Shown: positions 7,260 through 17,265 of the stretch, piece after piece | Position numbering within the stretch: position 1 is the stretch's first letter | Layout of the letters: each line of letters begins with the position of its first letter | Assembly (NCBI RefSeq): GCF_054482595.1 | Contig: NZ_CM137008.1 | DNA: 64,000 bases | Strand: one strand, 5' to 3' | Notes under the pieces: generated by a model | What the model was told of the DNA's origin: nothing | Seen by the model: the letters and a program-made list of their open reading frames with translations, nothing else | Databases searched by the model: none | Program-made: the position numbers and the translations under genes

Positions 7260-7629
7260 TTCGCCTCCGGATACTTACCCAGGGTAATGTTATTTACCGT
7301 TCTGTAATTGTCGCGGGTCATCAGGCCGGTCGCCCTGCGAGCCCGGAGGATATCGATGCTGTTTATTAACTGAGAGCGGGTACAGGCGCTGAATCCCGGC
7401 TGGTCGGTAGCACCAGCGCGTATTTTTCCACGAGAAAGTTCACCGCATCACACAGTGAAATGCCTGCCTCAATATGCTGCTCAATCACACGTTCATCGGC
7501 AAAAGGTGTGTCATTCTGTGTGAGGCCATAGTGCTGGTCCAGCAGTCGGGACAGCAGTATCTGCCAGATTTCAACAGGAGACGGGCGAGAACTGGCCGCC
7601 TGCCCGGGTAATACAGGTAATGTTTTCAT
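7256..7629 (-). pseudogene. cbtA: CbtA/YeeV-family type IV toxin, frameshifted
   Basis: Track ORF 7366..7629 matches CbtA for residues 1-73 then diverges; canonical C-terminus ([17 protein letters not shown]...YPEAK) is encoded in another frame, consistent with a 1-nt deletion. Confidence 0.7.
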
Positions 7630-7717
7630 ACTGAAGATTTTCCTGATATGCAGATATAAAAATGGAAAAGTGGCGTGGTGAAAACACCAGGCCGTAGCAG
7701 AAGGCTATTCTGGAGAG

Positions 7718-8086
7718 TTAATTTTTCATTTCGGGCGTCGGATAAACAGCCAGATAAACGTAACCACAACTGCTGAGGGTATCGGCTTTGCAGGTCAGCC
7801 CTTTTGCATACAGCGTGACGGTATGCTGATGGCGGGGATTCAGTTCACCGCTGGTGAGCATGAGTTCCAGTTGTTTCATCAGCAGCGGAAAGGCCTGGTC
7901 CAGGTGGTACGCATCTGCATCGCTGAACAGGCCTCTGATACCGGCGCGGTCGGCAAGGTAATGCAACCGGTTACCCTCCTGCACCAGACGTGCCCCGAAA
8001 CAGGGCGTCACGGTGCAGGGCAGCCCCCACCAGGGGCGGTCGTGATTGTCGTCGGGAAGTGTTGTCCCGGGGAGTGTGTCTGACAC
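7718..8086 (-). CDS. cbeA: CbeA/YeeU-family antitoxin
   Basis: 122 aa, recognised YeeU/CbeA sequence, directly upstream of cbtA. Confidence 0.85.
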   Translation of the reverse strand: MSDTLPGTTLPDDNHDRPWWGLPCTVTPCFGARLVQEGNRLHYLADRAGIRGLFSDADAYHLDQAFPLLMKQLELMLTSGELNPRHQHTVTLYAKGLTCKADTLSSCGYVYLAVYPTPEMKN

Positions 8087-8159
8087 GATAAAATCCTTAC
8101 AGAAAATCGGCTAAGAATGGTCCGGTAGTGGCGATAATTCTGCTCATCAGAATTCCCAC

Positions 8160-8381
8160 TCAGTTCAGGGTGACGCTCATCAGCCGGACATACGGACCAA
8201 AACTGTCCTTACGGCGTTCAGCAAACACGGCCAGCACACCGGGAATATCCTGCACTTCACGACCGGTATACGCTTCAGCACTGCCGTGCCAGCGGTATTT
8301 ACCGGTACAGAACGGAAAAAGACGGGATGTCGGATGTTGTTGGTGAATACGCATGGCTTCACCACGGGTGATAATTTTCAT
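8160..8381 (-). CDS. yeeT: DUF987 protein YeeT
   Basis: 73 aa, conserved island backbone gene upstream of antitoxin. Confidence 0.8.
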   Translation of the reverse strand: MKIITRGEAMRIHQQHPTSRLFPFCTGKYRWHGSAEAYTGREVQDIPGVLAVFAERRKDSFGPYVRLMSVTLN

Positions 8382-8443
8382 AATGGGATACCTCTGAAGA
8401 CAGAAGATAAAAGTGAAAACAGGTGTGATGTGGTTGTGAAGGG

Positions 8444-8935
8444 TTAAAGCAGACCATGTTCGGCAAAGGAGAAAACCTGGTTGCCACCGACTATCAGATG
8501 GTCCGGCACCCGGATATCCACCAGGCCCAGTGCCTGTACCAGACGTTCGGTGATAAGCCGGTCTGCCTTACTGGGTGTGACTTCACCGGACGGGTGATTG
8601 TGTGCCAGTACCACGGCAGCGGCATTGTGGTACAGGGCGCGTTTAATCACTTCCCGGGGATGGACTTCCGTGCGGTTGATGGTGCCGGTGAAGAGGGTTT
8701 CACCGGCAATCAGCTGATTCTGGTTGTTCAGATACAGCACCCGGAATTCTTCACGCTCCAGTCCCGCCATGTTCAGAATCAGCCATTCCCGTGCTGCACG
8801 GGTGGAGGTGAAGGCCACGCCGGGTTCATGAAGATGGCGGTCCAGGGTTTTCAGGGCCCGTTGAATGAGGCTGCGCTCGCCGGGCGTCATCTCTCCGGGC
8901 AGAAAGGAAAGTTGTTGCATTGTGCTTCTCTCCAT
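8444..8935 (-). CDS. yeeS: RadC-like JAB-domain protein (YeeS family)
   Basis: HNHPSG JAMM motif; alternative start at Met6 (MQQLSFLPGEM). Confidence 0.85.
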   Translation of the reverse strand: MERSTMQQLSFLPGEMTPGERSLIQRALKTLDRHLHEPGVAFTSTRAAREWLILNMAGLEREEFRVLYLNNQNQLIAGETLFTGTINRTEVHPREVIKRALYHNAAAVVLAHNHPSGEVTPSKADRLITERLVQALGLVDIRVPDHLIVGGNQVFSFAEHGLL

Positions 8936-9415
8936 TCAGTCGATGATGCGCATAATGGCGCTGCATTCCGGATGCTGCAGGGCGTAATCCCGCAACCGGT
9001 AATAATGGACCGTCATGGCATAATTCTCCGTACGACAGGCATGATGACTGTACGTCATCAGACAGGCGGCAATACCGGCGGCTTCCGGGCTCATTTCTGC
9101 GCGGTTACCGTTCATGGCATTGAACAGTACCCATGTTTCGTCATCATCGTCATCCGGTTCGGGTGCCATAAATGCCCCGCCGTTGTTCAGGGTGTACAGA
9201 TTCCAGATACCACCGCAGTAGTCTTCGCACAGACGGTCCATCCAGCCGAAGACACGGGGCTCCAGGGTCACCCACTGTGGAATGAGGCCAAAATGCTGCG
9301 GCCAGAAGCTGATGCGCTGTTCATCAGGGACGAGGCTGGCAACCAACTGAGGCGGATTATTCTCTGGTGTTGTAGCTGAATAAATTGTGGGGGTATTCTG
9401 AGAAACGGTTTTCAT
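8936..9415 (-). CDS. Antirestriction protein (ArdB/KlcA-like)
   Basis: 159 aa with acidic stretch EPDDDDDETW; position between DUF932 and radC typical of CP4-type islands. Confidence 0.7.
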   Translation of the reverse strand: MKTVSQNTPTIYSATTPENNPPQLVASLVPDEQRISFWPQHFGLIPQWVTLEPRVFGWMDRLCEDYCGGIWNLYTLNNGGAFMAPEPDDDDDETWVLFNAMNGNRAEMSPEAAGIAACLMTYSHHACRTENYAMTVHYYRLRDYALQHPECSAIMRIID

Positions 9416-9496
9416 GAGATAACTCCTTAAATAACAAATAAATGTGTGTTTTTCAGGAACGAAAGCTGAATGATTCCCTCACTCAGGGAAACGGCA

Positions 9497-10315
9497 TCAG
9501 CGCAGGCTCTCCAGCATCGTTTCTGCCATCACCCACAATGCGCGATTGAGCTTAATGTCGGTATCAATGCTGTGAATGGCCCGGGTATGGATACGTTTTC
9601 CTTTTGCACTGCGACCGGAAATCCCGCCTTTCAGCATATTCTCCTGGATGGTCTGATATGCGCTCCACAGGTCCTTACCGTAATCCTCCCGGCGTCGCGG
9701 CGTCAGAATGTCGGCGGTGGTGACGGGCTGATGTTCGTCACCATAACGGTAAGTCAGTGCCGCCTGTGCCAGCGCCTGGCGTGCCGGTGGCGGCAGGACC
9801 AGCGACTGCATGGCATCACGCTTCTCCTCTATCCGGTCAAACACGCCCACCACCTCGTAAGCCCCTTCGATAACTTTCTCCACTACATTTCCCCGGTGTG
9901 GAACACGCACTTCCCCCAGAGACTGGCCACAGACGCACCCGTTCTGGCAGACGAACCTGAAGTAACCCGGCAGCATCTGGTAGCTGGAGGTACCGTCATG
10001 AGAGTTGAGCAGAATAATTTCAGGGACATGTTCTCCGTTTATCTCTCCGGCCCGCCGCAGACGCAGCATGTGTTTTGTGTATCCCCGGCGGCCCGGGTCG
10101 CGCACACGGGTCTGGCAGGCGAAGAACGGCTGAAAGCCTTCCCGCTGCAGATTTTCCAGGACGGTAATGGTGGGAATGTACGCATACCGTTCACTGCGGG
10201 AGGTATGCCGGTCTTCCCCAAAAATACTGGGTACATAGTGCATCAGTTCTTCGTGTGTCAGCGGACGGTCACGGCGTATCTGGTTTACATGACCAAAACG
10301 ACTTGCTAATCGCAT
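9497..10315 (-). CDS. DUF932-family protein (YfjQ/YafZ-like)
   Basis: 272 aa; conserved island backbone gene upstream of antirestriction gene. Confidence 0.7.
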   Translation of the reverse strand: MRLASRFGHVNQIRRDRPLTHEELMHYVPSIFGEDRHTSRSERYAYIPTITVLENLQREGFQPFFACQTRVRDPGRRGYTKHMLRLRRAGEINGEHVPEIILLNSHDGTSSYQMLPGYFRFVCQNGCVCGQSLGEVRVPHRGNVVEKVIEGAYEVVGVFDRIEEKRDAMQSLVLPPPARQALAQAALTYRYGDEHQPVTTADILTPRRREDYGKDLWSAYQTIQENMLKGGISGRSAKGKRIHTRAIHSIDTDIKLNRALWVMAETMLESLR

Positions 10316-10351
10316 GATTTGCTCCTTATGAATGAGTTAGCGGTATAAATG

Positions 10352-10381
10352 AAAAAGCTGCGTCTCCCGGAGAAGACGCGG
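10352..10381 (-). terminator. Rho-independent terminator ending the cargo region
   Basis: Hairpin gcgtct(loop)agacgc followed on minus strand by T-run; downstream of secreted-protein gene. Confidence 0.5.
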
Positions 10382-10525
10382 CCTGACGGGTGAAATGAAT
10401 AAGGTTTATTGTCTGAGAGGCCTTTCACTGGCGAGCCACGCATTAAGCGGCTTTCCGGTAACAATGGCTGGGGCTGTATTTACCTTTGATATTAATAATG
10501 TGCAGAGAAACGCATGGTTTACTCC

Positions 10526-10936
10526 TTAGATTTTAAGTTTGTCCTGGGCTACAACGACAGGTTTTCCGGATGTGTCGATGACTCCTACCGTCGGTACGCC
10601 ATTTTTGATTTCGAAGAACGGTTTGTTGCTACCTGAGCACAGTTGATTGTCCCCGTATTCAATCATTTGTGCTTTCCCGGTTTTCAGGTTAACTACCGAG
10701 ACAGTGTAGTCGTAGCACCAGGCACCACCACGTTCAAGCACGAAAACATAGCTGTTATCTTTATAGTTGAACTGATTCTTTGTCTGGCAATTCATACCGT
10801 CAATCTCAGTACAGGAAAACGCTTCTGTAGTATTAACGTATTTGATGTTATTTGGCAGTTTTACTTGTTTCGCAGTAGCGAAGACAGAGAACAGAATAGT
10901 TACAGCAACGAGTAAAGTTTTGATAAAAGTTTTCAT
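10526..10936 (-). CDS. Small secreted protein of unknown function (4 Cys)
   Basis: 136 aa, N-terminal signal peptide MKTFIKTLLVAVTILFSVFATA, four cysteines. Confidence 0.6.
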   Translation of the reverse strand: MKTFIKTLLVAVTILFSVFATAKQVKLPNNIKYVNTTEAFSCTEIDGMNCQTKNQFNYKDNSYVFVLERGGAWCYDYTVSVVNLKTGKAQMIEYGDNQLCSGSNKPFFEIKNGVPTVGVIDTSGKPVVVAQDKLKI

Positions 10937-10951
10937 GATAGACTCCTTAAA

Positions 10952-11440
10952 TTAGTTAACCGCAGCTACGTAGTTTTTCACCAGATACGCGAATTCATGC
11001 ACGCCAATTTCACCGAACCAAACCAGGTAGGCCGGGTCATCTAAACCAAAGTAACGGTAGCCAACAACTTCATGGGTTTTTGGGTTATAGAGTGTTACGA
11101 TAAAGTCCCAGCCGCAGGTATTGGCTTTGCAACCGTCGCCCTGGAGCCAGACTGTACCGTTAATGTTTACTGGCGTGATACCTCCACCAGGGCCATCCAT
11201 ATAGCCGCCTTTACCGAACATGCCGCTCAGTCCGACCGGTTTTAATGCTTTGTCGATAGCGGCTTTGTAGGTAGCGTCACCTTCGTACAACTCGTACGTT
11301 GATGGACACGCTCCAGGTTGTTCAGCCCAGGCTTCCGGGTTACAACTAAGTGCTTGTTTTACGGTAGCCGCTTCTGCGTTAAAGTTAAAGCCCGTGAACA
11401 GAACCGCCAGAAATAACATAAGGGTATGTAAACGTTTCAT
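10952..11440 (-). CDS. Secreted protein, possibly Ivy-like (C-K-x3-C loop)
   Basis: Internal start MKRLHTLMLFLAVLFTGFNFNAEA (signal peptide); motif GCKANTCGW resembles Ivy CKPHDCG loop but lacks His; track ORF 10952..11743 is N-terminally extended. Confidence 0.5.
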   Translation of the reverse strand: MKRLHTLMLFLAVLFTGFNFNAEAATVKQALSCNPEAWAEQPGACPSTYELYEGDATYKAAIDKALKPVGLSGMFGKGGYMDGPGGGITPVNINGTVWLQGDGCKANTCGWDFIVTLYNPKTHEVVGYRYFGLDDPAYLVWFGEIGVHEFAYLVKNYVAAVN

Positions 11441-11728
11441 TGTAAATATTCTTCCGTTGTAAATGGCGCTGGAAAATTTCTCATCAGTGAAACCTTCCGG
11501 AAGTTTCCCCCCCTTGTATGATGTATATCGCCAGTATTTTATTTCATCCCGGCTGTAATTTTTATATTCCCCGGCACGTGCAATAACGCTGACCAGAGAT
11601 ATAAGGCTCATTAATAACTTTACAGGTAATTTCATAATTAAATTTCCAGTGAGTGAATTGACAGGTGAGGGGTAAAACTTTCTCTCAGGTAATATATATC
11701 TGAAAATATTTTCAATAACACCAGACAG

Positions 11729-11755
11729 GAAAAACACCACCACAGGCGGTGGCGT
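11729..11755 (-). terminator. Putative Rho-independent terminator after patatin gene
   Basis: Stem ccacc / ggtgg with 6-nt loop followed on minus strand by tgttttt. Confidence 0.45.
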
Positions 11756-11770
11756 TTCTTTGGGGCGTCT

Positions 11771-12841
11771 TTATTTAATCCGGGCCATCGCGTTTCTCAG
11801 TGCCAAATCTGCCTCTTCCGTTATATCCAGGCTTTTCTGCAATACCGCCTCTGACCGGGTCAGTGCCTGACGTGCTGCCAGCGGTTTCCGGATATGCTCC
11901 ATCGCCAGCATCGTGTCTTCATAGCCCTGCTGACGCCAGGCGTCGGTATGTGCCGATGTAAAACTGAGCAGACCGCCGCTGTTGCCACCATCACCTGCAT
12001 ATTTCAGCCTTTTCCGGGGACGGATCTCAAGGATTGTGGTGTCCGGAAAAGCCTGGCGATCCCATAAAGAACCGTCACTCAGATGCGTCACAATCACCAT
12101 ATTGCATCCGGCATCGACCAGAGGCGTCACAGGGGTATTTCCCTGCATATTTCGCCATCCTCCCATACCACCATCACCGAACATTGTCCCCTGAACCTCA
12201 CGGGGACGGAACAGCAGGGGCAGCGCGGCTGACGCAAGCAGAGCCTCTTTCTGCTGTCCGCGGGGCAGGCTCTGGATATGCTGAAAAACGGCGTTTTTCG
12301 TGGTTCCGACACCCAGTTCAGCACGAATGCAGTCAATAATATCCTGCATGCCCCCTTCTGTGGGGTACAGCGACACATACAGCGGTAGCCCGTCTGCCAG
12401 AGCATCAGTATCAAGATAATGATCCATCAGCGCTGTCAGGGGCTCATCTGACAACAACGGCTGAGCCATCAGATTGTCAAACCCGTTGATTGTCGATATA
12501 TGGCGAAGAAGCGTCGTAAGCAGTGCTCCTGCACGTCCGGGGATCTGGCAGAGGTTCATTGCCTGGAACAATTTTTTCAGCAATGAAAAGTAAACCAATC
12601 TGTTTACCGACAGCACCTGATTATTCCCCAGATGATCCCAGAGCGCCTCCAGGCGTACGGCAGCTTCTGACAGATCGGGAGAGGCCGCGATAATGGCACC
12701 ATTGAATGCGCCAATGCTGGCCCCTGAAACCATGCTGATCTGTGTACCACACTCTGCCAGTGCCTTAACCACTCCCGCCTGATAAGCGCCCACCGCCCCG
12801 CCACCGGACAGCACCAGCCCCGTTTTCATTTCTGTACTCAT
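11771..12841 (-). CDS. Patatin-like phospholipase
   Basis: GGGAVGAYQAG oxyanion-hole motif, GASIG (GxSxG) nucleophile, DGG motif (FGDGGMGG); start overlaps upstream stop (ATGA). Confidence 0.85.
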   Translation of the reverse strand: MSTEMKTGLVLSGGGAVGAYQAGVVKALAECGTQISMVSGASIGAFNGAIIAASPDLSEAAVRLEALWDHLGNNQVLSVNRLVYFSLLKKLFQAMNLCQIPGRAGALLTTLLRHISTINGFDNLMAQPLLSDEPLTALMDHYLDTDALADGLPLYVSLYPTEGGMQDIIDCIRAELGVGTTKNAVFQHIQSLPRGQQKEALLASAALPLLFRPREVQGTMFGDGGMGGWRNMQGNTPVTPLVDAGCNMVIVTHLSDGSLWDRQAFPDTTILEIRPRKRLKYAGDGGNSGGLLSFTSAHTDAWRQQGYEDTMLAMEHIRKPLAARQALTRSEAVLQKSLDITEEADLALRNAMARIK

Positions 12842-13743
12842 GCAGCCCCCTTCTGAAATATTTCATCGACCATACTTTCAGAGAGGCGTTCTGCAGAGCA
12901 GAGGCGAGGCATGCGAACCGGTAAGTGTTCTGCAGCCTGCGTGGTTGACCAGATCACCGGATGCTGCTCTTCACTGCACCAGTCTCCCAGCCAGTTAATC
13001 GCGTCATGCCACTCGTTATCTGCCTGCTCCCGGCCCTGACCACCAAGCCAGTCCAGAGTGTTCAGACGCACGGTTGCACTACCGCCACTCTCCTGTGCCA
13101 TCTGCGTTAATGCTTTATGTCTGAGAATATCCAGTAGCTGGTTAACCTGGCCTGTTTCGCCCTGACGTATCACATCACCAAACGCGCCCCAGCGAAGCTC
13201 TTCAAGTGCCACATAACAACGTCCGGCAGGGGAAAATGACGCATATCGCCCGGCGCTCCACCATGAGAATATCTGCTCAAGATGTAACTGCGCCCGCTGA
13301 ACCTGGTCAACACGGTGGAGTTTTTCTTCAAGATGATTCAGTTTATGGTGAACCTGATCGGCCAGGGTGAGTAACTGCTCCCGCGTATCTGCGGAATAAT
13401 GCGCCAGCCTGGCTGTATCACTGACCAGTGAACTGACCCTGTCGTTTACCCGGGTAATCGCGTAGTTTGTGGTGGCAAGTGACGTTGTCATCTCCGTCAG
13501 CCAGCGCAGGGACGCCTCAACGCCCTGTGCAAGCGACGCATTGATGGCATTCTGCCGTGCAGCGCCTTCGCCGGTCAGCCCCTCTTTTAAACGCCGGAAG
13601 AACGTGCGCTCTCCGGCCGTGCGGATATGCTCCTGTGCAACATCGATTCCGTTTGCGAAATCAACCACAAATTTTTCAGGAAGACAGGTGAGTACCTGAC
13701 ATACCCGGTTATCAGCAATTTGTTGAATAAATGGTGAAGTCAC
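12838..13743 (-). CDS. Hypothetical coiled-coil protein, middle gene of operon
   Basis: 301 aa, helical/heptad-rich, no recognised domain; ATGA overlaps with both neighbours. Confidence 0.7.
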   Translation of the reverse strand: MTSPFIQQIADNRVCQVLTCLPEKFVVDFANGIDVAQEHIRTAGERTFFRRLKEGLTGEGAARQNAINASLAQGVEASLRWLTEMTTSLATTNYAITRVNDRVSSLVSDTARLAHYSADTREQLLTLADQVHHKLNHLEEKLHRVDQVQRAQLHLEQIFSWWSAGRYASFSPAGRCYVALEELRWGAFGDVIRQGETGQVNQLLDILRHKALTQMAQESGGSATVRLNTLDWLGGQGREQADNEWHDAINWLGDWCSEEQHPVIWSTTQAAEHLPVRMPRLCSAERLSESMVDEIFQKGAA

Positions 13744-16136
13744 AGCATTGTCTCCAGCTCTTCCCTCAGCGCCTTACTGTCAGTAATGAGCTCAGGAACC
13801 CTTTCATTTAATGCCTGAAGTCGCCCGGTAAGTCGTTCCTGCGCCTGCTGATCGCGTTTATGATCCTCAGAGCTCTGAATCAGCGTGTTACGCAGTTGTT
13901 CAACTTTCTCCCTGAATGCGCAGAAAAAGGCATCGATTTCCTGGCGGACGGGCTGGTTAATATCCTGCTCAATGGATGCCTGCAGCTCCCCGAAATATGC
14001 CCGGGTCAGTGACATAACTTCCTCTCTGACCTTGTTGATATTGATCACGCTGCGACTCACATCCTCGTCATAGTTTTCCCAGCCCAGGTCACTGGTGCCA
14101 AACCATCGACAAACGGTTCCCCATACGCCACTCTGCCGACGGCGACGGGTGACGGTCTCCGTTCTTTCCTCCATAAGCGCACTCAGATTTATTTTTACCG
14201 CGAGCCGGGTCTGTAACTGGCTGACTGCCGGAAAACTGATTTTTACGGTAAAGCCCTCATCCTCCAGGCGGGCATTGATGCGACCGGCAATGTTTTCTGT
14301 GGCGTACAGGGCCGTGCCACGAAAACCTGTTTCAATCCCGCTGACGATTTTCTCCAGCTCAGGCCGGAACTGTGCTTCAGCCTCACGGTGCAGGCTGGTC
14401 ACGGTCGATTCGATTTGCGTCATCAGTTCAAGGGCTTCCCTGCGATCACTGAATTTTATTTCGGGGCTGTCCGGGGCAAAATCTCGTTTCCTGTAATCCT
14501 CCCGGCCCTGGTTGTTGATACCGGACCATTGAGAAATTTTCCCCCATAATCCGGACTGAGACCTTCGTTGTTCTGCGTCTTCTTCCTCCAGCATTTGCTG
14601 TTCTTTGCGTTTACCGCTTCTGAAATAGTCATTCAGCTCCTCTTCCAGTGAGGTGCAGACCCCCGTCAGTAATTCCCGGGTTTTAGTATCGATCTCCTCC
14701 ATGGCCATTCTGACATCAGTGGTCATCTGCTCCTGACAGTCCGCGATTTCCCGGATATCCGCAAGCAGGCTGGTGATATGCGACTGCAGTGACTGAATGC
14801 TTTGCTGTAGCCCCTGATGGCGTAACAACAGGTATTCACTGATATTTTCTGCATTCTGCATCAGTTTTGCGGCGGCAGAGTCAACCGCCAGTGCCGCAGC
14901 TCTGGAATGTGAGCTCTGTATGACTTCCGTTATCAGTTGATCGATAAGTGAGCCTTCCCACAGGTCTGTCGCCCCTTCAGTTGCCAGTTCACTGTCTTTA
15001 CAGACGTATTCTTTTTTCATGCAACCGAAGGCACCTCTGATAAAATCATCGACCCAGGCTTCATCAACAGGAAGGGTTCCGTTTTTCCGTAACTCATGAA
15101 GCGCACGGTTAGCCAGGTATGCCTGGCGTGAGGATCCGGGATAAACGCGGGAGGCGGGCAGCACATCGCTGTTCAGCATTGCCGGAACTTTCTGGCGTAC
15201 GGCATCTGCCCCATCGCCATTGCGGTCTTTCTCATCAAATTTATTGACCAGTACAAACAGGCGGCCGGCTGATACGTCAGCAATGGCATTAAGCTCTTTA
15301 CGGACGTCTTCATCCGCTTTTGAGTTCATCTGGGTGTAATCCATCACAGCCAGAACCGCAGAGGCTTTCTGCAGTTGATCCCGCATCATCACTTCCATCT
15401 GCGGTTGTCCGGCCTCATTAGGGCCGGGGGTATCCAGCAGTGTGAGTGTTCCCTGGCATGCATCCATCCCCACCAGATGGCTGAATTCCACGTCGATCAC
15501 CGGCAGTTTCTGCACTTCTGCGTATTCATCAAAAGGAAATTCAGTCCCCATTGCCGCAGCAAGACGAACCAGATCGTTTAACGATGCCAGTCCGGTAAAG
15601 ATTTCCTCCTCCCCGTGGTATTCATTTTTGAGCCAGCCATCATCCGTCAGAATATCCAGCAGTTCGCGGGTATCCCCGGTTTGCTGCAGGGTCTGTGCGA
15701 CCTGCTGTCCTGCCGGGGTGGCGAGTTTTTCCTGCAGTGTGATTAATAAATTGCGGACAGGCTGAATATGTTCCAGATGGAGAACCGGCTCAGTTTTTCC
15801 GGGAACGTGGCGGATGAGCGTCGGTACAGAGGTCATGGGGCGGTTACGGTTAGGCAGAATTTCCTGCCCCACAATGGCATTGATGGTGGTTGATTTGCCT
15901 GCTTTCATCGTGCCGACAACAGCCAGCACCATCTCCCTGCGGGCGGTTTTGATTTGTTCGCCCTCCAGCTCCTCAATTCTTTTCAGTGCTTTCTGTTTAT
16001 CAAAAAGCAGTCTGTTTTCGTTCTTACTGTCAGATAACACATCTGGCTCCTCAACCATTTGCCGGAGCAGATTAATGTTCAGTTGCAAAAGTCGGTCGGC
16101 TTCATCACAAAGCAGGGCGATGTTCTTTTCGTGCAT
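13740..16136 (-). CDS. Dynamin-like GTPase (bacterial dynamin family)
   Basis: 798 aa; G1 GTMKAGKST, G3 DTPG, G4 NKFD, long helical C-terminal region. Confidence 0.85.
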   Translation of the reverse strand: MHEKNIALLCDEADRLLQLNINLLRQMVEEPDVLSDSKNENRLLFDKQKALKRIEELEGEQIKTARREMVLAVVGTMKAGKSTTINAIVGQEILPNRNRPMTSVPTLIRHVPGKTEPVLHLEHIQPVRNLLITLQEKLATPAGQQVAQTLQQTGDTRELLDILTDDGWLKNEYHGEEEIFTGLASLNDLVRLAAAMGTEFPFDEYAEVQKLPVIDVEFSHLVGMDACQGTLTLLDTPGPNEAGQPQMEVMMRDQLQKASAVLAVMDYTQMNSKADEDVRKELNAIADVSAGRLFVLVNKFDEKDRNGDGADAVRQKVPAMLNSDVLPASRVYPGSSRQAYLANRALHELRKNGTLPVDEAWVDDFIRGAFGCMKKEYVCKDSELATEGATDLWEGSLIDQLITEVIQSSHSRAAALAVDSAAAKLMQNAENISEYLLLRHQGLQQSIQSLQSHITSLLADIREIADCQEQMTTDVRMAMEEIDTKTRELLTGVCTSLEEELNDYFRSGKRKEQQMLEEEDAEQRRSQSGLWGKISQWSGINNQGREDYRKRDFAPDSPEIKFSDRREALELMTQIESTVTSLHREAEAQFRPELEKIVSGIETGFRGTALYATENIAGRINARLEDEGFTVKISFPAVSQLQTRLAVKINLSALMEERTETVTRRRRQSGVWGTVCRWFGTSDLGWENYDEDVSRSVININKVREEVMSLTRAYFGELQASIEQDINQPVRQEIDAFFCAFREKVEQLRNTLIQSSEDHKRDQQAQERLTGRLQALNERVPELITDSKALREELETML

Positions 16137-16353: not shown

Positions 16354-17265
16354 TCAGAAGAAAATCCAGTTCCATACCGCGCGGGCAACAGAGACCACCG
16401 AGTCACGGACGGCGCGCAGAACCGTGCGTGCAACAGAGGCAATGCAGACGCTCTCCGCCGTGTCAAATATCCGGTCCACCGCACCGGTAAACTGTTCACG
16501 GGCCTGAGACCGGACAGACTCCGTGCGCAGCTCGTCCTGCAGGCGGGTCATCAGGGGACTGGCGGCATGGTCGGGAAGTGCTGTCATGAGCGCACTGACC
16601 AGCGTATCCAGTTCCCAGCCGGTGCGGGCCGATACGGCAACAACCCGATGTACGGGCCGGAACAGACGGAATACCGCCTCCGTTTTTTCGCGAATGTTCT
16701 GTGCCTGTGCGGGAGAAGGCTGAATACCGGCCATATCCCATTCATGGCAGGGCTCCGTTTTATCGGCCTGCATCACCACAAACAGTACCCGCTGATGTCC
16801 CCGGTGCAGGATGTGTCGCCAGAAATACTCATCCACAGACAGGGCACGGTCATCGGCTTTAATCAGCCACAGTACCAGGTCCAGTTCGGGCAGAATGTCA
16901 CGGTACAGGGCTTCATACTCTGCATCCCTGTCCCGGCTCTCGCCCACCCCGGGCAGGTCAGTGATAACCATGCTGTGACCATGGCCATTCAGACGGAAGC
17001 GCTGCACTTCCCGGGTGCCGGCGTGAACATCACTGACCGGGGTGACCTCCCCCTGAAACAGCGCATTACAGAGTGAGGATTTACCGGCCCCGCTTTTCCC
17101 CATAATGCCAATCACGGGTTCGTGACTGGTGAGTTTGCGCAGATGTTCCAGGATGTGACGGGAAAGTGAGTAAGGCAGGGAGGAGAGCGGTTTTTCGATT
17201 GCCTCAATGGCATCAGACGGATTCATACATGTATTCCCGGTGAAAAAAGACAAAACCCCGCGCAC
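16354..17265 (-). CDS. yeeP: YfjP/YeeP-family GTPase
   Basis: P-loop GIMGKSGAGKSS, DLPG, recognised YfjP/YeeP-like sequence; alternative start at MNPSD (17226). Confidence 0.8.
   Translation of the reverse strand: MRGVLSFFTGNTCMNPSDAIEAIEKPLSSLPYSLSRHILEHLRKLTSHEPVIGIMGKSGAGKSSLCNALFQGEVTPVSDVHAGTREVQRFRLNGHGHSMVITDLPGVGESRDRDAEYEALYRDILPELDLVLWLIKADDRALSVDEYFWRHILHRGHQRVLFVVMQADKTEPCHEWDMAGIQPSPAQAQNIREKTEAVFRLFRPVHRVVAVSARTGWELDTLVSALMTALPDHAASPLMTRLQDELRTESVRSQAREQFTGAVDRIFDTAESVCIASVARTVLRAVRDSVVSVARAVWNWIFF

Follow-up and report, generated by a model that had tools for sequence, protein, structure and literature searches.

A predicted periplasmic gene pair on Escherichia coli islands, with a divergent Ivy-family member and a jumbo-phage-type partner

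We analysed two small adjacent genes, ORF-B and ORF-A (ORF, open reading frame), in a window of 64,000 nucleotides from contig NZ_CM137008.1 (RefSeq assembly GCF_054482595.1). The window is Escherichia coli DNA, and its segment 10300–11800 matches many strains, the type strain ATCC 11775 among them, at 100% identity. Both genes follow a dynamin/RdcB/patatin operon on an island (Table 1). A sequence-only reading of the window had described them as adjacent minus-strand genes with signal peptides, encoding 136 and 163 amino acids (aa); coordinates, strand, signal peptides and the length of ORF-A stand, and the figure of 163 gives way to 162 aa, the stop codon having been counted. By inspection, the N-terminus of ORF-B (MKRLHTLMLFLAVLFTGFNFNAEA, followed by ATV) has MKR, a hydrophobic core and an A-x-A site, and that of ORF-A (MKTFIKTLLVAVTILFSVFATA, followed by KQV) combines a basic n-region with a hydrophobic core and an A-x-A site, both being of the Sec/signal peptidase I type; no lipobox was seen in either N-terminus. 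A signal peptide also stands directly ahead of the conserved domain in all 22 aligned relatives of ORF-B. Export of both proteins to the periplasm via cleavable signal peptides is thus predicted, and the mature forms contain four cysteines each (Cys33, Cys45, Cys104 and Cys109 in ORF-B), an even number that fits such export.

ORF-A begins 15 nucleotides (nt) after ORF-B, and the AAGGAG ribosome-binding site lying inside this gap indicates that the two genes are probably co-transcribed; the same tight spacing was observed at loci L006, L012 and L019. Comparison of diverged alleles gave ratios of nonsynonymous to synonymous divergence (dN/dS) of 0.12–0.35 for ORF-B and 0.08–0.22 for ORF-A, at a synonymous divergence (dS) of up to 2.3, and the pair was present at a query coverage of at least 80% in 2247 of 5426 complete E. 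coli genomes. Because of these values, and of the match of ORF-A to the phage protein family phrog_8968 described below, ORF-A and ORF-B are real genes under purifying selection and not chance ORFs. Roughly four of every ten complete E. coli genomes, with O157, O145 and extraintestinal pathogenic (ExPEC) lineages among them, therefore carry the pair under the name 'hypothetical protein', one of the two genes with a wrong start.

Table 1. Features of the gene pair, the surrounding cassette and the neighbouring island genes (positions in the window)
Feature	Coordinates	Strand	Remarks
ORF-B	10952-11440	minus	ATG at 11440, stop at 10952; 162-aa precursor, divergent Ivy-family protein, predicted periplasmic; mature form ~138 aa
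ORF-B signal peptide	11369-11440	minus	codons 1-24, MKRLHTLMLFLAVLFTGFNFNAEA; predicted cleavage after AEA (inspection)
Putative disulfide-closed loop C104-K-A-N-T-C109 of ORF-B	11114-11131	minus	counterpart of Ivy CKPHDC; in register by HMMER and hhalign
ORF-A	10526-10936	minus	136-aa precursor, predicted small all-beta periplasmic protein; cysteines C42, C50, C74, C100
AAGGAG ribosome-binding site of ORF-A	10943-10948	minus	6 nt before the ORF-A ATG, 3 nt past the ORF-B stop
'sec180' remnant	11441-11635	minus	start (~65 codons) of a third gene for a secreted protein, joined in frame to ORF-B; explains the 227-aa RefSeq call
'sec129' (phrog_5248) remnant	10492-10525	minus	ribosome-binding site and ATGCGTTTC.TCTGC right after the ORF-A stop; homology then ends; right-hand cassette break
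Terminator-like hairpin and U-run	11730-11759	minus	separates the cassette from the patatin stop (11771); z -4.1 at a fold of -19.4 kcal/mol; conserved in L009
Terminator-like hairpin and U-run	10355-10384	minus	separates the DUF932 gene from the cassette; z -4.1 at a fold of -18.3 kcal/mol
Patatin-like phospholipase	11771-12841	minus	
RdcB-family gene	12838-13743	minus	
Dynamin-family CrfC/RdcA paralogue	13740-16136	minus	
YeeP/YkfA-like GTPase	16354-17265	minus	upstream in the island
DUF932 gene	9497-10315	minus	followed by antirestriction, RadC/YeeS, YeeT, CbeA and CbtA genes, the usual CP4-type backbone

The relationship of ORF-B to the lysozyme inhibitor Ivy emerged through its relatives. 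Searches of the PDB with the single ORF-A and ORF-B sequences, of PHROGs with ORF-B, and of 50,697 phage records by tblastn with ORF-B returned nothing usable. A profile restricted to E. coli sequences reached Ivy (1gpq/1xs0) at an E-value of only 1.1, yet it laid the CK..xC-G pattern exactly over CKPHDC-G. The same profile, run with HMMER against 1.84 billion proteins, recovered about 30 single- and multi-domain relatives with E-values from 1e-21 to 1e-4, and 18 of the 22 family members that were aligned match the Pfam Ivy family (PF08816) individually. From the PDB, a profile of ORF-B plus these relatives (A5) retrieved only the four Ivy chain sets, namely 1gpq/1xs0 (E 1.4e-13), 4ps6 (1.4e-9) and 1uuz (1.8e-9), and the loops were aligned in register. 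Comparison with K-12 Ivy by hhalign gave a probability of 97% (E 1e-10). By tblastn, Klebsiella plasmid genes to which the NCBI Prokaryotic Genome Annotation Pipeline (PGAP) gives the name 'Ivy family c-type lysozyme inhibitor' align with 96% of the length of ORF-B at 33.7% identity (E 4e-11). ORF-B thus has significant homology, via profile and relatives, to experimentally characterised Ivy proteins, and its AlphaFold2 model (predicted local distance difference test, pLDDT, of 68) has the Ivy fold. Fold, profile homology and pairwise similarity, as three independent lines, support the placement of ORF-B as a divergent member of the Ivy family, in agreement with the resemblance to the Ivy loop that the sequence-only reading had noted by eye.

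Compared with Ivy (YkfE) of E. coli and Ivyp1 of Pseudomonas aeruginosa (1gpq, 1xs0, 1uuz; PF08816), ORF-B shares the fold and the position of the loop. It differs from K-12 Ivy by an additional conserved cysteine pair, C33/C45, with a C-P-Y motif. Unlike Ivy, it lies on a mobile island, is phage-derived, is partnered with a second secreted protein and has the loop CKANTC in place of CKPHDC. The Ivy family is thereby extended to genes on mobile elements and in phages, and to loops that lack the canonical histidine.

The loop itself (GDGCKANTCGWD, in the context GDG-CKANTC-GWD) occupies the homologous position: in three independent alignments C104-x4-C109-G falls on C-KPHD-C-G, and C104 and C109 are the sole invariant columns among the 22 family members. 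The consensus of the family is C-[EKQ]-x-H-N-C-G, and the distant relatives mostly have C-[EKQ]-x-H-N-C. In E. coli the loop varies at its tip, and we found five alleles, namely CKANTC (the allele of the window and the commonest), CKANAC, CKSNAC, CKSDAC and CKAHAC. The earlier description of a GCKANTCGW loop resembling that of Ivy without its histidine is accurate for the allele of the window, which departs from the CKPHDC consensus at the central histidine; the sister allele CKAHAC keeps this residue.

ORF-A belongs to a different family. Pfam yielded nothing usable for it, and neither sequence nor fold comparison revealed features of MliC, PliC, PliG or PliI, so that the likeness to MliC/PliC inhibitors that had been put forward for checking did not materialise. 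Against phrog_8968 the match is essentially full-length (E 2.6e-45, residues 1–131 on profile positions 1–133 of 135), and a reciprocal tblastn with gp084 of jumbo phage SPN3US (SPN3US_0182) returned ORF-A at 37% identity and E 2e-13. On these comparisons ORF-A is assigned to phrog_8968 as a homologue of SPN3US gp084. Its AlphaFold2 model (pLDDT 64) is all-beta with seven strands. A match to the NCBIfam 'BLB8/JUQZ-1 family' (E 0.022; 15 bits, cut-off 40) was dropped because it lies below the threshold and, starting at residue 1, takes in the signal peptide.

The ancestral arrangement of the pair is preserved outside the E. coli islands. On metagenome contigs (L012–L014) and on NZ_CP134650.1 (L019), the 222,441-bp 'plasmid unnamed1' of Enterobacter ludwigii (locus 7398–14116), the genes stand in the intact order sec131, Ivy-like gene, ORF-A and sec129. 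Behind them come another two small genes and one that encodes an SMC domain; genes for dynamin, RdcB and patatin are absent. PHROGs places ORF-A in phrog_8968, sec131 in phrog_9424 and sec129 in phrog_5248. Homologues of ORF-A and sec129 are adjacent in SPN3US-like jumbo phages of Salmonella, Erwinia, Escherichia and Proteus (tblastn), and SPN3US gp086–gp080 match the L012 and L019 loci in gene order and sizes at 30–59% protein identity. These comparisons show that the pair originates from SPN3US-like jumbo phages. SPN3US gp086–gp083 (SPN3US_0180–0183) and their relatives in Erwinia, Escherichia and Proteus phages resemble the cassette in order and in encoding small secreted cysteine-containing proteins, and the gp086-like and gp083-like genes correspond to the remnants that flank the pair in E. 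coli. SPN3US differs from the cassette in the gene adjoining gp084: gp085 is a paralogue within the ORF-A family (phrog_17072; match to phrog_8968 at E 2.9e-8), and an Ivy-like gene occupies this slot only in the L012/L019 lineage. Considered as an Ivy-like protein, gp085 reached an hhalign probability of 0.6% and was rejected.

The SPN3US locus (L020; NC_027402.1, 165783–167492) consists of four small signal-peptide genes, gp086, gp085, gp084 and gp083 (phrog_9424, 17072, 8968 and 5248), at least three of which are distant paralogues sharing a four-cysteine pattern; no publication on the function of SPN3US_0180–0183 was found in the literature searched. The E. ludwigii 'plasmid' shares at least eight syntenic genes with SPN3US, including the SMC-domain gene, at 30–59% identity over the ~7-kb stretch compared, and this synteny makes it probable that NZ_CP134650.1 is the genome of a jumbo phage that was submitted as a plasmid.

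Alignment with another E. coli allele (L009) accounts for the annotated start of ORF-B. RefSeq/PGAP calls a protein of 227 aa with its start at 11635 (WP_001361977.1; L001 15653–16336). The extra 65 residues contain a second signal peptide. Over 63 aa they share 49% identity (E 4e-17) with the N-terminus of a 180-aa secreted protein that is intact in L009, where its gene sits between the patatin gene and the Ivy-like gene. DNA alignment revealed a deletion of ~0.7 kb that joined the first ~65 codons of this 'sec180' gene to ORF-B in frame and also removed the small gene 'sec131'. The widespread 227-aa RefSeq protein is accordingly a chimera with two tandem signal peptides. More diverged homologues of ORF-B have 160–161 aa and begin at the MKRLH signal peptide without the 65-codon extension, and for this reason the start at 11440, as given in the sequence-only reading, is taken as ancestral. 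At the other end, the full 129-aa sec129 gene follows ORF-A in L012 and L019, where the window has a short remnant. The E. coli cassette is thus a fragment of a jumbo-phage secreted-protein cluster, cut at both ends, with the pair as its intact middle.

A further tie between the two families comes from gene fusions. In proteins P0088, P0090 and P0129 (~282–316 aa) and in the Klebsiella plasmid protein, an Ivy-like domain is fused to a C-terminal four-cysteine domain of phrog_5248, the family of sec129, which is itself weakly similar to the ORF-A family (E 8e-4 in PHROGs; hhalign 77%). Such fusion genes (L016 5872–6945 on a Klebsiella IncFIB plasmid; L005 3795–4745) reside on plasmids and islands in CP4-like backbones with GTPase, DUF932 or WYL, RadC, CbtA/CbeA and DUF905 genes, and their loops include CEAHNC, CEANNC and CEQGNC. 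Tight adjacency of ORF-B and ORF-A is likewise conserved in three contexts, the E. coli islands at two integration sites and the phage-like genomes. Adjacency and a fused paralogue thus repeatedly link the ORF-A family to Ivy-like domains, and by the same two routes phrog_8968, 5248, 17072 and 9424 become candidates for a connection with peptidoglycan-hydrolase inhibition. The proposal that ORF-A itself is the C-terminal domain of the 314-aa Ivy fusions found no direct support by BLASTP or hhalign and was set aside. Stand-alone phrog_5248-type domains were seen in secreted proteins of 154–225 aa in Providencia, Proteus, Morganella and Salmonella.

The sequence-only reading had suggested that the pair might be inhibitors, immunity proteins or accessory factors linked to the lipase and dynamin genes upstream. 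Such a module could, for example, shield the envelope of the producer from the phospholipase or aid its delivery. The arrangement in E. coli is suggestive of this: within the islands the pair always lies directly downstream of the patatin gene, at two integration sites and with diverged alleles, including the tRNA-Ile site (ETEC6335) with 83%-identical alleles, and the block of RdcB, patatin and the pair is covered to at least 80% in 1777 genomes. In an RNA-seq study of E. coli MP1, Kapi1 lysogens showed their strongest up-regulation in such operons, and a role in phage defence was suggested; its text speaks of 'five genes' from one of these islands and does not name them (PMC12922286). The two sets of genes nevertheless have unlike histories, since dS between islands is 0.4–0.9 for ORF-A and ORF-B against 0.03–0.10 for RdcB and patatin, a difference of several-fold to more than 20-fold. 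The pair has a history separate from, and much older than, that of the adjacent patatin and RdcB genes. Nucleotide identity falls abruptly ~40 bp beyond the patatin terminator hairpin, and stable hairpins with U-runs bracket the pair and separate it from patatin. In the E. coli, plasmid, phage and contig sequences compared, adjacency is constant within the E. coli islands, but the pair is found without the operon in the SPN3US-like genomes (L012–L014 and L019), and the Ivy-like fusion proteins occur in CP4-like backbones without dynamin, RdcB or patatin. ORF-A has been lost where the operon stays, and the operon has been lost where the pair stays; in strain PK5074 (L015), IS3 and IS1 elements (IS, insertion sequence) stand in place of the operon and the pair is intact. 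The patatin has no signal peptide, in contrast to the predicted periplasmic location of the pair. Because of the gap in dS, the abrupt drop in identity, the independent losses, the operon-free occurrences and the missing signal peptide of the patatin, we reject a dedicated accessory or immunity role, which is highly improbable, and regard the pair as co-located cargo. Caution is therefore needed before the pair is counted in a putative dynamin/patatin defence operon.

In the operon (11771–16136, minus strand), island-borne paralogues of the chromosomal pair rdcA-rdcB (yjdA-yjcZ) are combined with a patatin-like phospholipase gene. A PADLOC search on its patatin, RdcB and dynamin genes gave only weak LeoBC and phospholipase-effector matches.

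A phenotype has already been published for what is almost certainly the same gene as ORF-B. In E. coli O121, knock-down of 'Hypo_04657' by CRISPR interference (CRISPRi) significantly improved T7 plaquing; the AlphaFold model of the protein was superposed on Ivy (1XS0), the loop was quoted as CKANTC against CKPHDC, and inhibition of a phage lysozyme (T7 lysozyme) was proposed without a test (bioRxiv 10.1101/2024.04.20.590424). The identification follows from the shared species, the Ivy-like AlphaFold model and the CKANTC loop, a string that occurred in no other paper of the literature searched. The preprint describes a two-domain protein with a helical 'transmembrane' part, which fits the 227-aa annotation, but it puts the helices at the C-terminus. 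Since the preprint already flags the Ivy resemblance, this resemblance is not new. The preprint gives no homology statistics and leaves ORF-A, the cassette and a phage origin unmentioned; the present analysis adds statistics for the homology, a corrected gene start, the polymorphism of the loop, the family of the partner and the jumbo-phage origin. ORF-B as an Ivy relative offers a testable biochemical hypothesis for this published, unexplained T7-resistance phenotype.

With moderate confidence, we favour the view that the pair is a domesticated, phage-derived periplasmic cassette in which ORF-B inhibits a peptidoglycan glycosidase, mainly of infecting phages. On this view, a CP4-type island acquired a jumbo-phage cluster, now shortened at either end, in the gap that separates its patatin operon from its DUF932 gene. 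ORF-B would be exported by Sec and matured to a periplasmic Ivy-fold protein of ~138 aa, whose loop C104-KANT-C109, closed by a predicted disulfide, may plug the active-site cleft of a glycosidase by homology with Ivy; the target could be a lysozyme-type muramidase or a lytic transglycosylase. For ORF-A, exported and co-transcribed, the most likely target is that of ORF-B or a related one in the periplasm. For these points, namely the inhibitory activity, its target and the role of ORF-A, we infer from homology and context. An enzyme of infecting phages is proposed because the pair comes from a phage, because the known phenotype concerns T7, and because the residues characteristic of lysozyme-inhibiting Ivy have been lost; the present role would most likely be the blunting of incoming cell-wall-degrading enzymes, above all of infecting phages, rather than any service to the dynamin/RdcB/patatin operon.

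Two other targets must be weighed at this point. ORF-B could be a second Ivy directed against vertebrate C-type lysozyme in the gut or tissues, the role that has been proposed for canonical Ivy, given that it shares the Ivy fold and loop position, that gut and pathogenic E. coli, with O157, O145 and ExPEC among them, widely carry it, and that the sister allele CKAHAC retains the histidine. One study reports that the CKPHDC loop is essential to inhibition and strictly conserved in 30 Ivy proteins and that its central histidine is essential for lysozyme inhibition (PMC4262234); the dominant allele lacks the His, Pro and Asp of this loop. E. coli already has a chromosomal ivy, the cassette stems from a cluster of virulent-type jumbo phages, in which defence against host lysozyme makes little sense, and the sole recorded phenotype concerns T7; we consider a lysozyme of the vertebrate host an unlikely target. 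The second possibility is that ORF-B, with ORF-A, regulates the lytic transglycosylases of the cell itself or is an envelope-stress chaperone, a type of housekeeping function that has been suggested for Ivy. According to two reports, Ivy proteins inhibit lytic transglycosylases besides C-type lysozyme, Ivyp1 and Ivyp2 inhibiting MltB in vitro and E. coli Ivy weakly inhibiting MltA/B (PMC10139938; PMC10746161), and K-12 Ivy is annotated as a periplasmic chaperone. The genes of the pair are, however, accessory, mobile, often decayed and of phage origin, and their alleles are deeply diverged, unlike those of housekeeping regulators, so that we give this explanation little credence.

Several observations weigh against an inhibitory cassette directed at phage enzymes. 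Direct detection of the Ivy family fails: ORF-B is ~15–18% identical to Ivy and Ivyp1, Pfam contains no match to it even at E ≤ 10, and the NCBIfam Ivy model NF007443, whose cut-off is 180 bits, gives it 12.5 (E 0.098). The quality of the ORF-B model is moderate, with a pLDDT of 62 in the loop and below 50 in the last 30 residues. The loop of the window lacks the His, Pro and Asp of CKPHDC, and lysozyme inhibition is therefore not to be assumed. PADLOC-DB v2 contains no family that matches ORF-A or ORF-B at E ≤ 0.01. The identification of the O121 gene rests on the shared loop and species, and CRISPRi is polar, so the T7 phenotype is not assignable to ORF-B over ORF-A.

The remaining adverse points concern decay, and they bear equally on the proposal that the cassette is functionless, decaying phage DNA whose ORFs are still open. 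It is truncated at both ends, with one neighbouring gene fused and another reduced to a few codons, and a minus-strand scan found no sigma-70-like promoter upstream of the pair. Some lineages have suffered IS insertions and losses: in O25:H4 strain 18044 (L007, 9425–12688) the Ivy-like gene is split by ISEc12, of the IS21 family, with ORF-A and the operon intact, and in the CKAHAC-allele islands (L008–L011; 7640–8001 and 8483–8851) sec131 is a frameshifted pseudogene and ORF-A is absent. From the latter it follows that lineages retained different parts of the ancestral phage cluster, with the Ivy-like gene as the shared survivor. Absence of function is difficult to reconcile with purifying selection on both genes (dN/dS 0.08–0.35 across the two), with a pair that is intact in most of ~2250 genomes, and with a knock-down that alters T7 plating, and this proposal is accordingly quite improbable.

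The inhibitory cassette that we favour can be specified further. The T7 'lysozyme' gp3.5 is an amidase, while gp16 has a lytic-transglycosylase domain that is used at entry, which makes gp16 the more natural target of an Ivy-type inhibitor. We tentatively suggest, as a possibility well short of probable, that the pair is a domesticated jumbo-phage superinfection-exclusion module of the periplasm, in which ORF-B, with ORF-A as its helper or acting in parallel, would inhibit a virion cell-wall enzyme (in T7, the gp16 transglycosylase) and hinder genome entry, with H, N or D at the tip of the loop tuning alleles to different phage enzymes. Spackle (gp61.3) of T4, a periplasmic inhibitor of the T4 tail lysozyme gp5, is a possible functional analogue, likened here by description only as a small, signal-peptide-bearing, phage-encoded periplasmic blocker of an incoming cell-wall enzyme. 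It is encoded by a phage and serves that phage, whereas ORF-A and ORF-B are on a bacterial island. If the target is a phage entry enzyme, the pair would act in the periplasm at the stage of entry, as few described defences do; if the superinfection-exclusion proposal is correct, a Spackle-like entry defence would be present in ~40% of E. coli, unseen by current defence catalogues.

The neighbourhoods of the distant Ivy-like genes were heterogeneous, with no conserved partner enzyme in those inspected. The gene for P0092, a distant Ivy-like protein, adjoins EAL and SrfB genes, and that for P0141, a stand-alone phrog_5248 domain, adjoins IrmA and a membrane protein. The metagenomic protein P0122 (439 aa) has an Ivy-like N-terminus with the loop CKAHDC (NCBIfam Ivy, E 1.2e-11) fused to a domain matching 'caspase, EACC1-associated type' (E 2.8e-16), a combination that one would not expect of a lysozyme-inhibitor fold.

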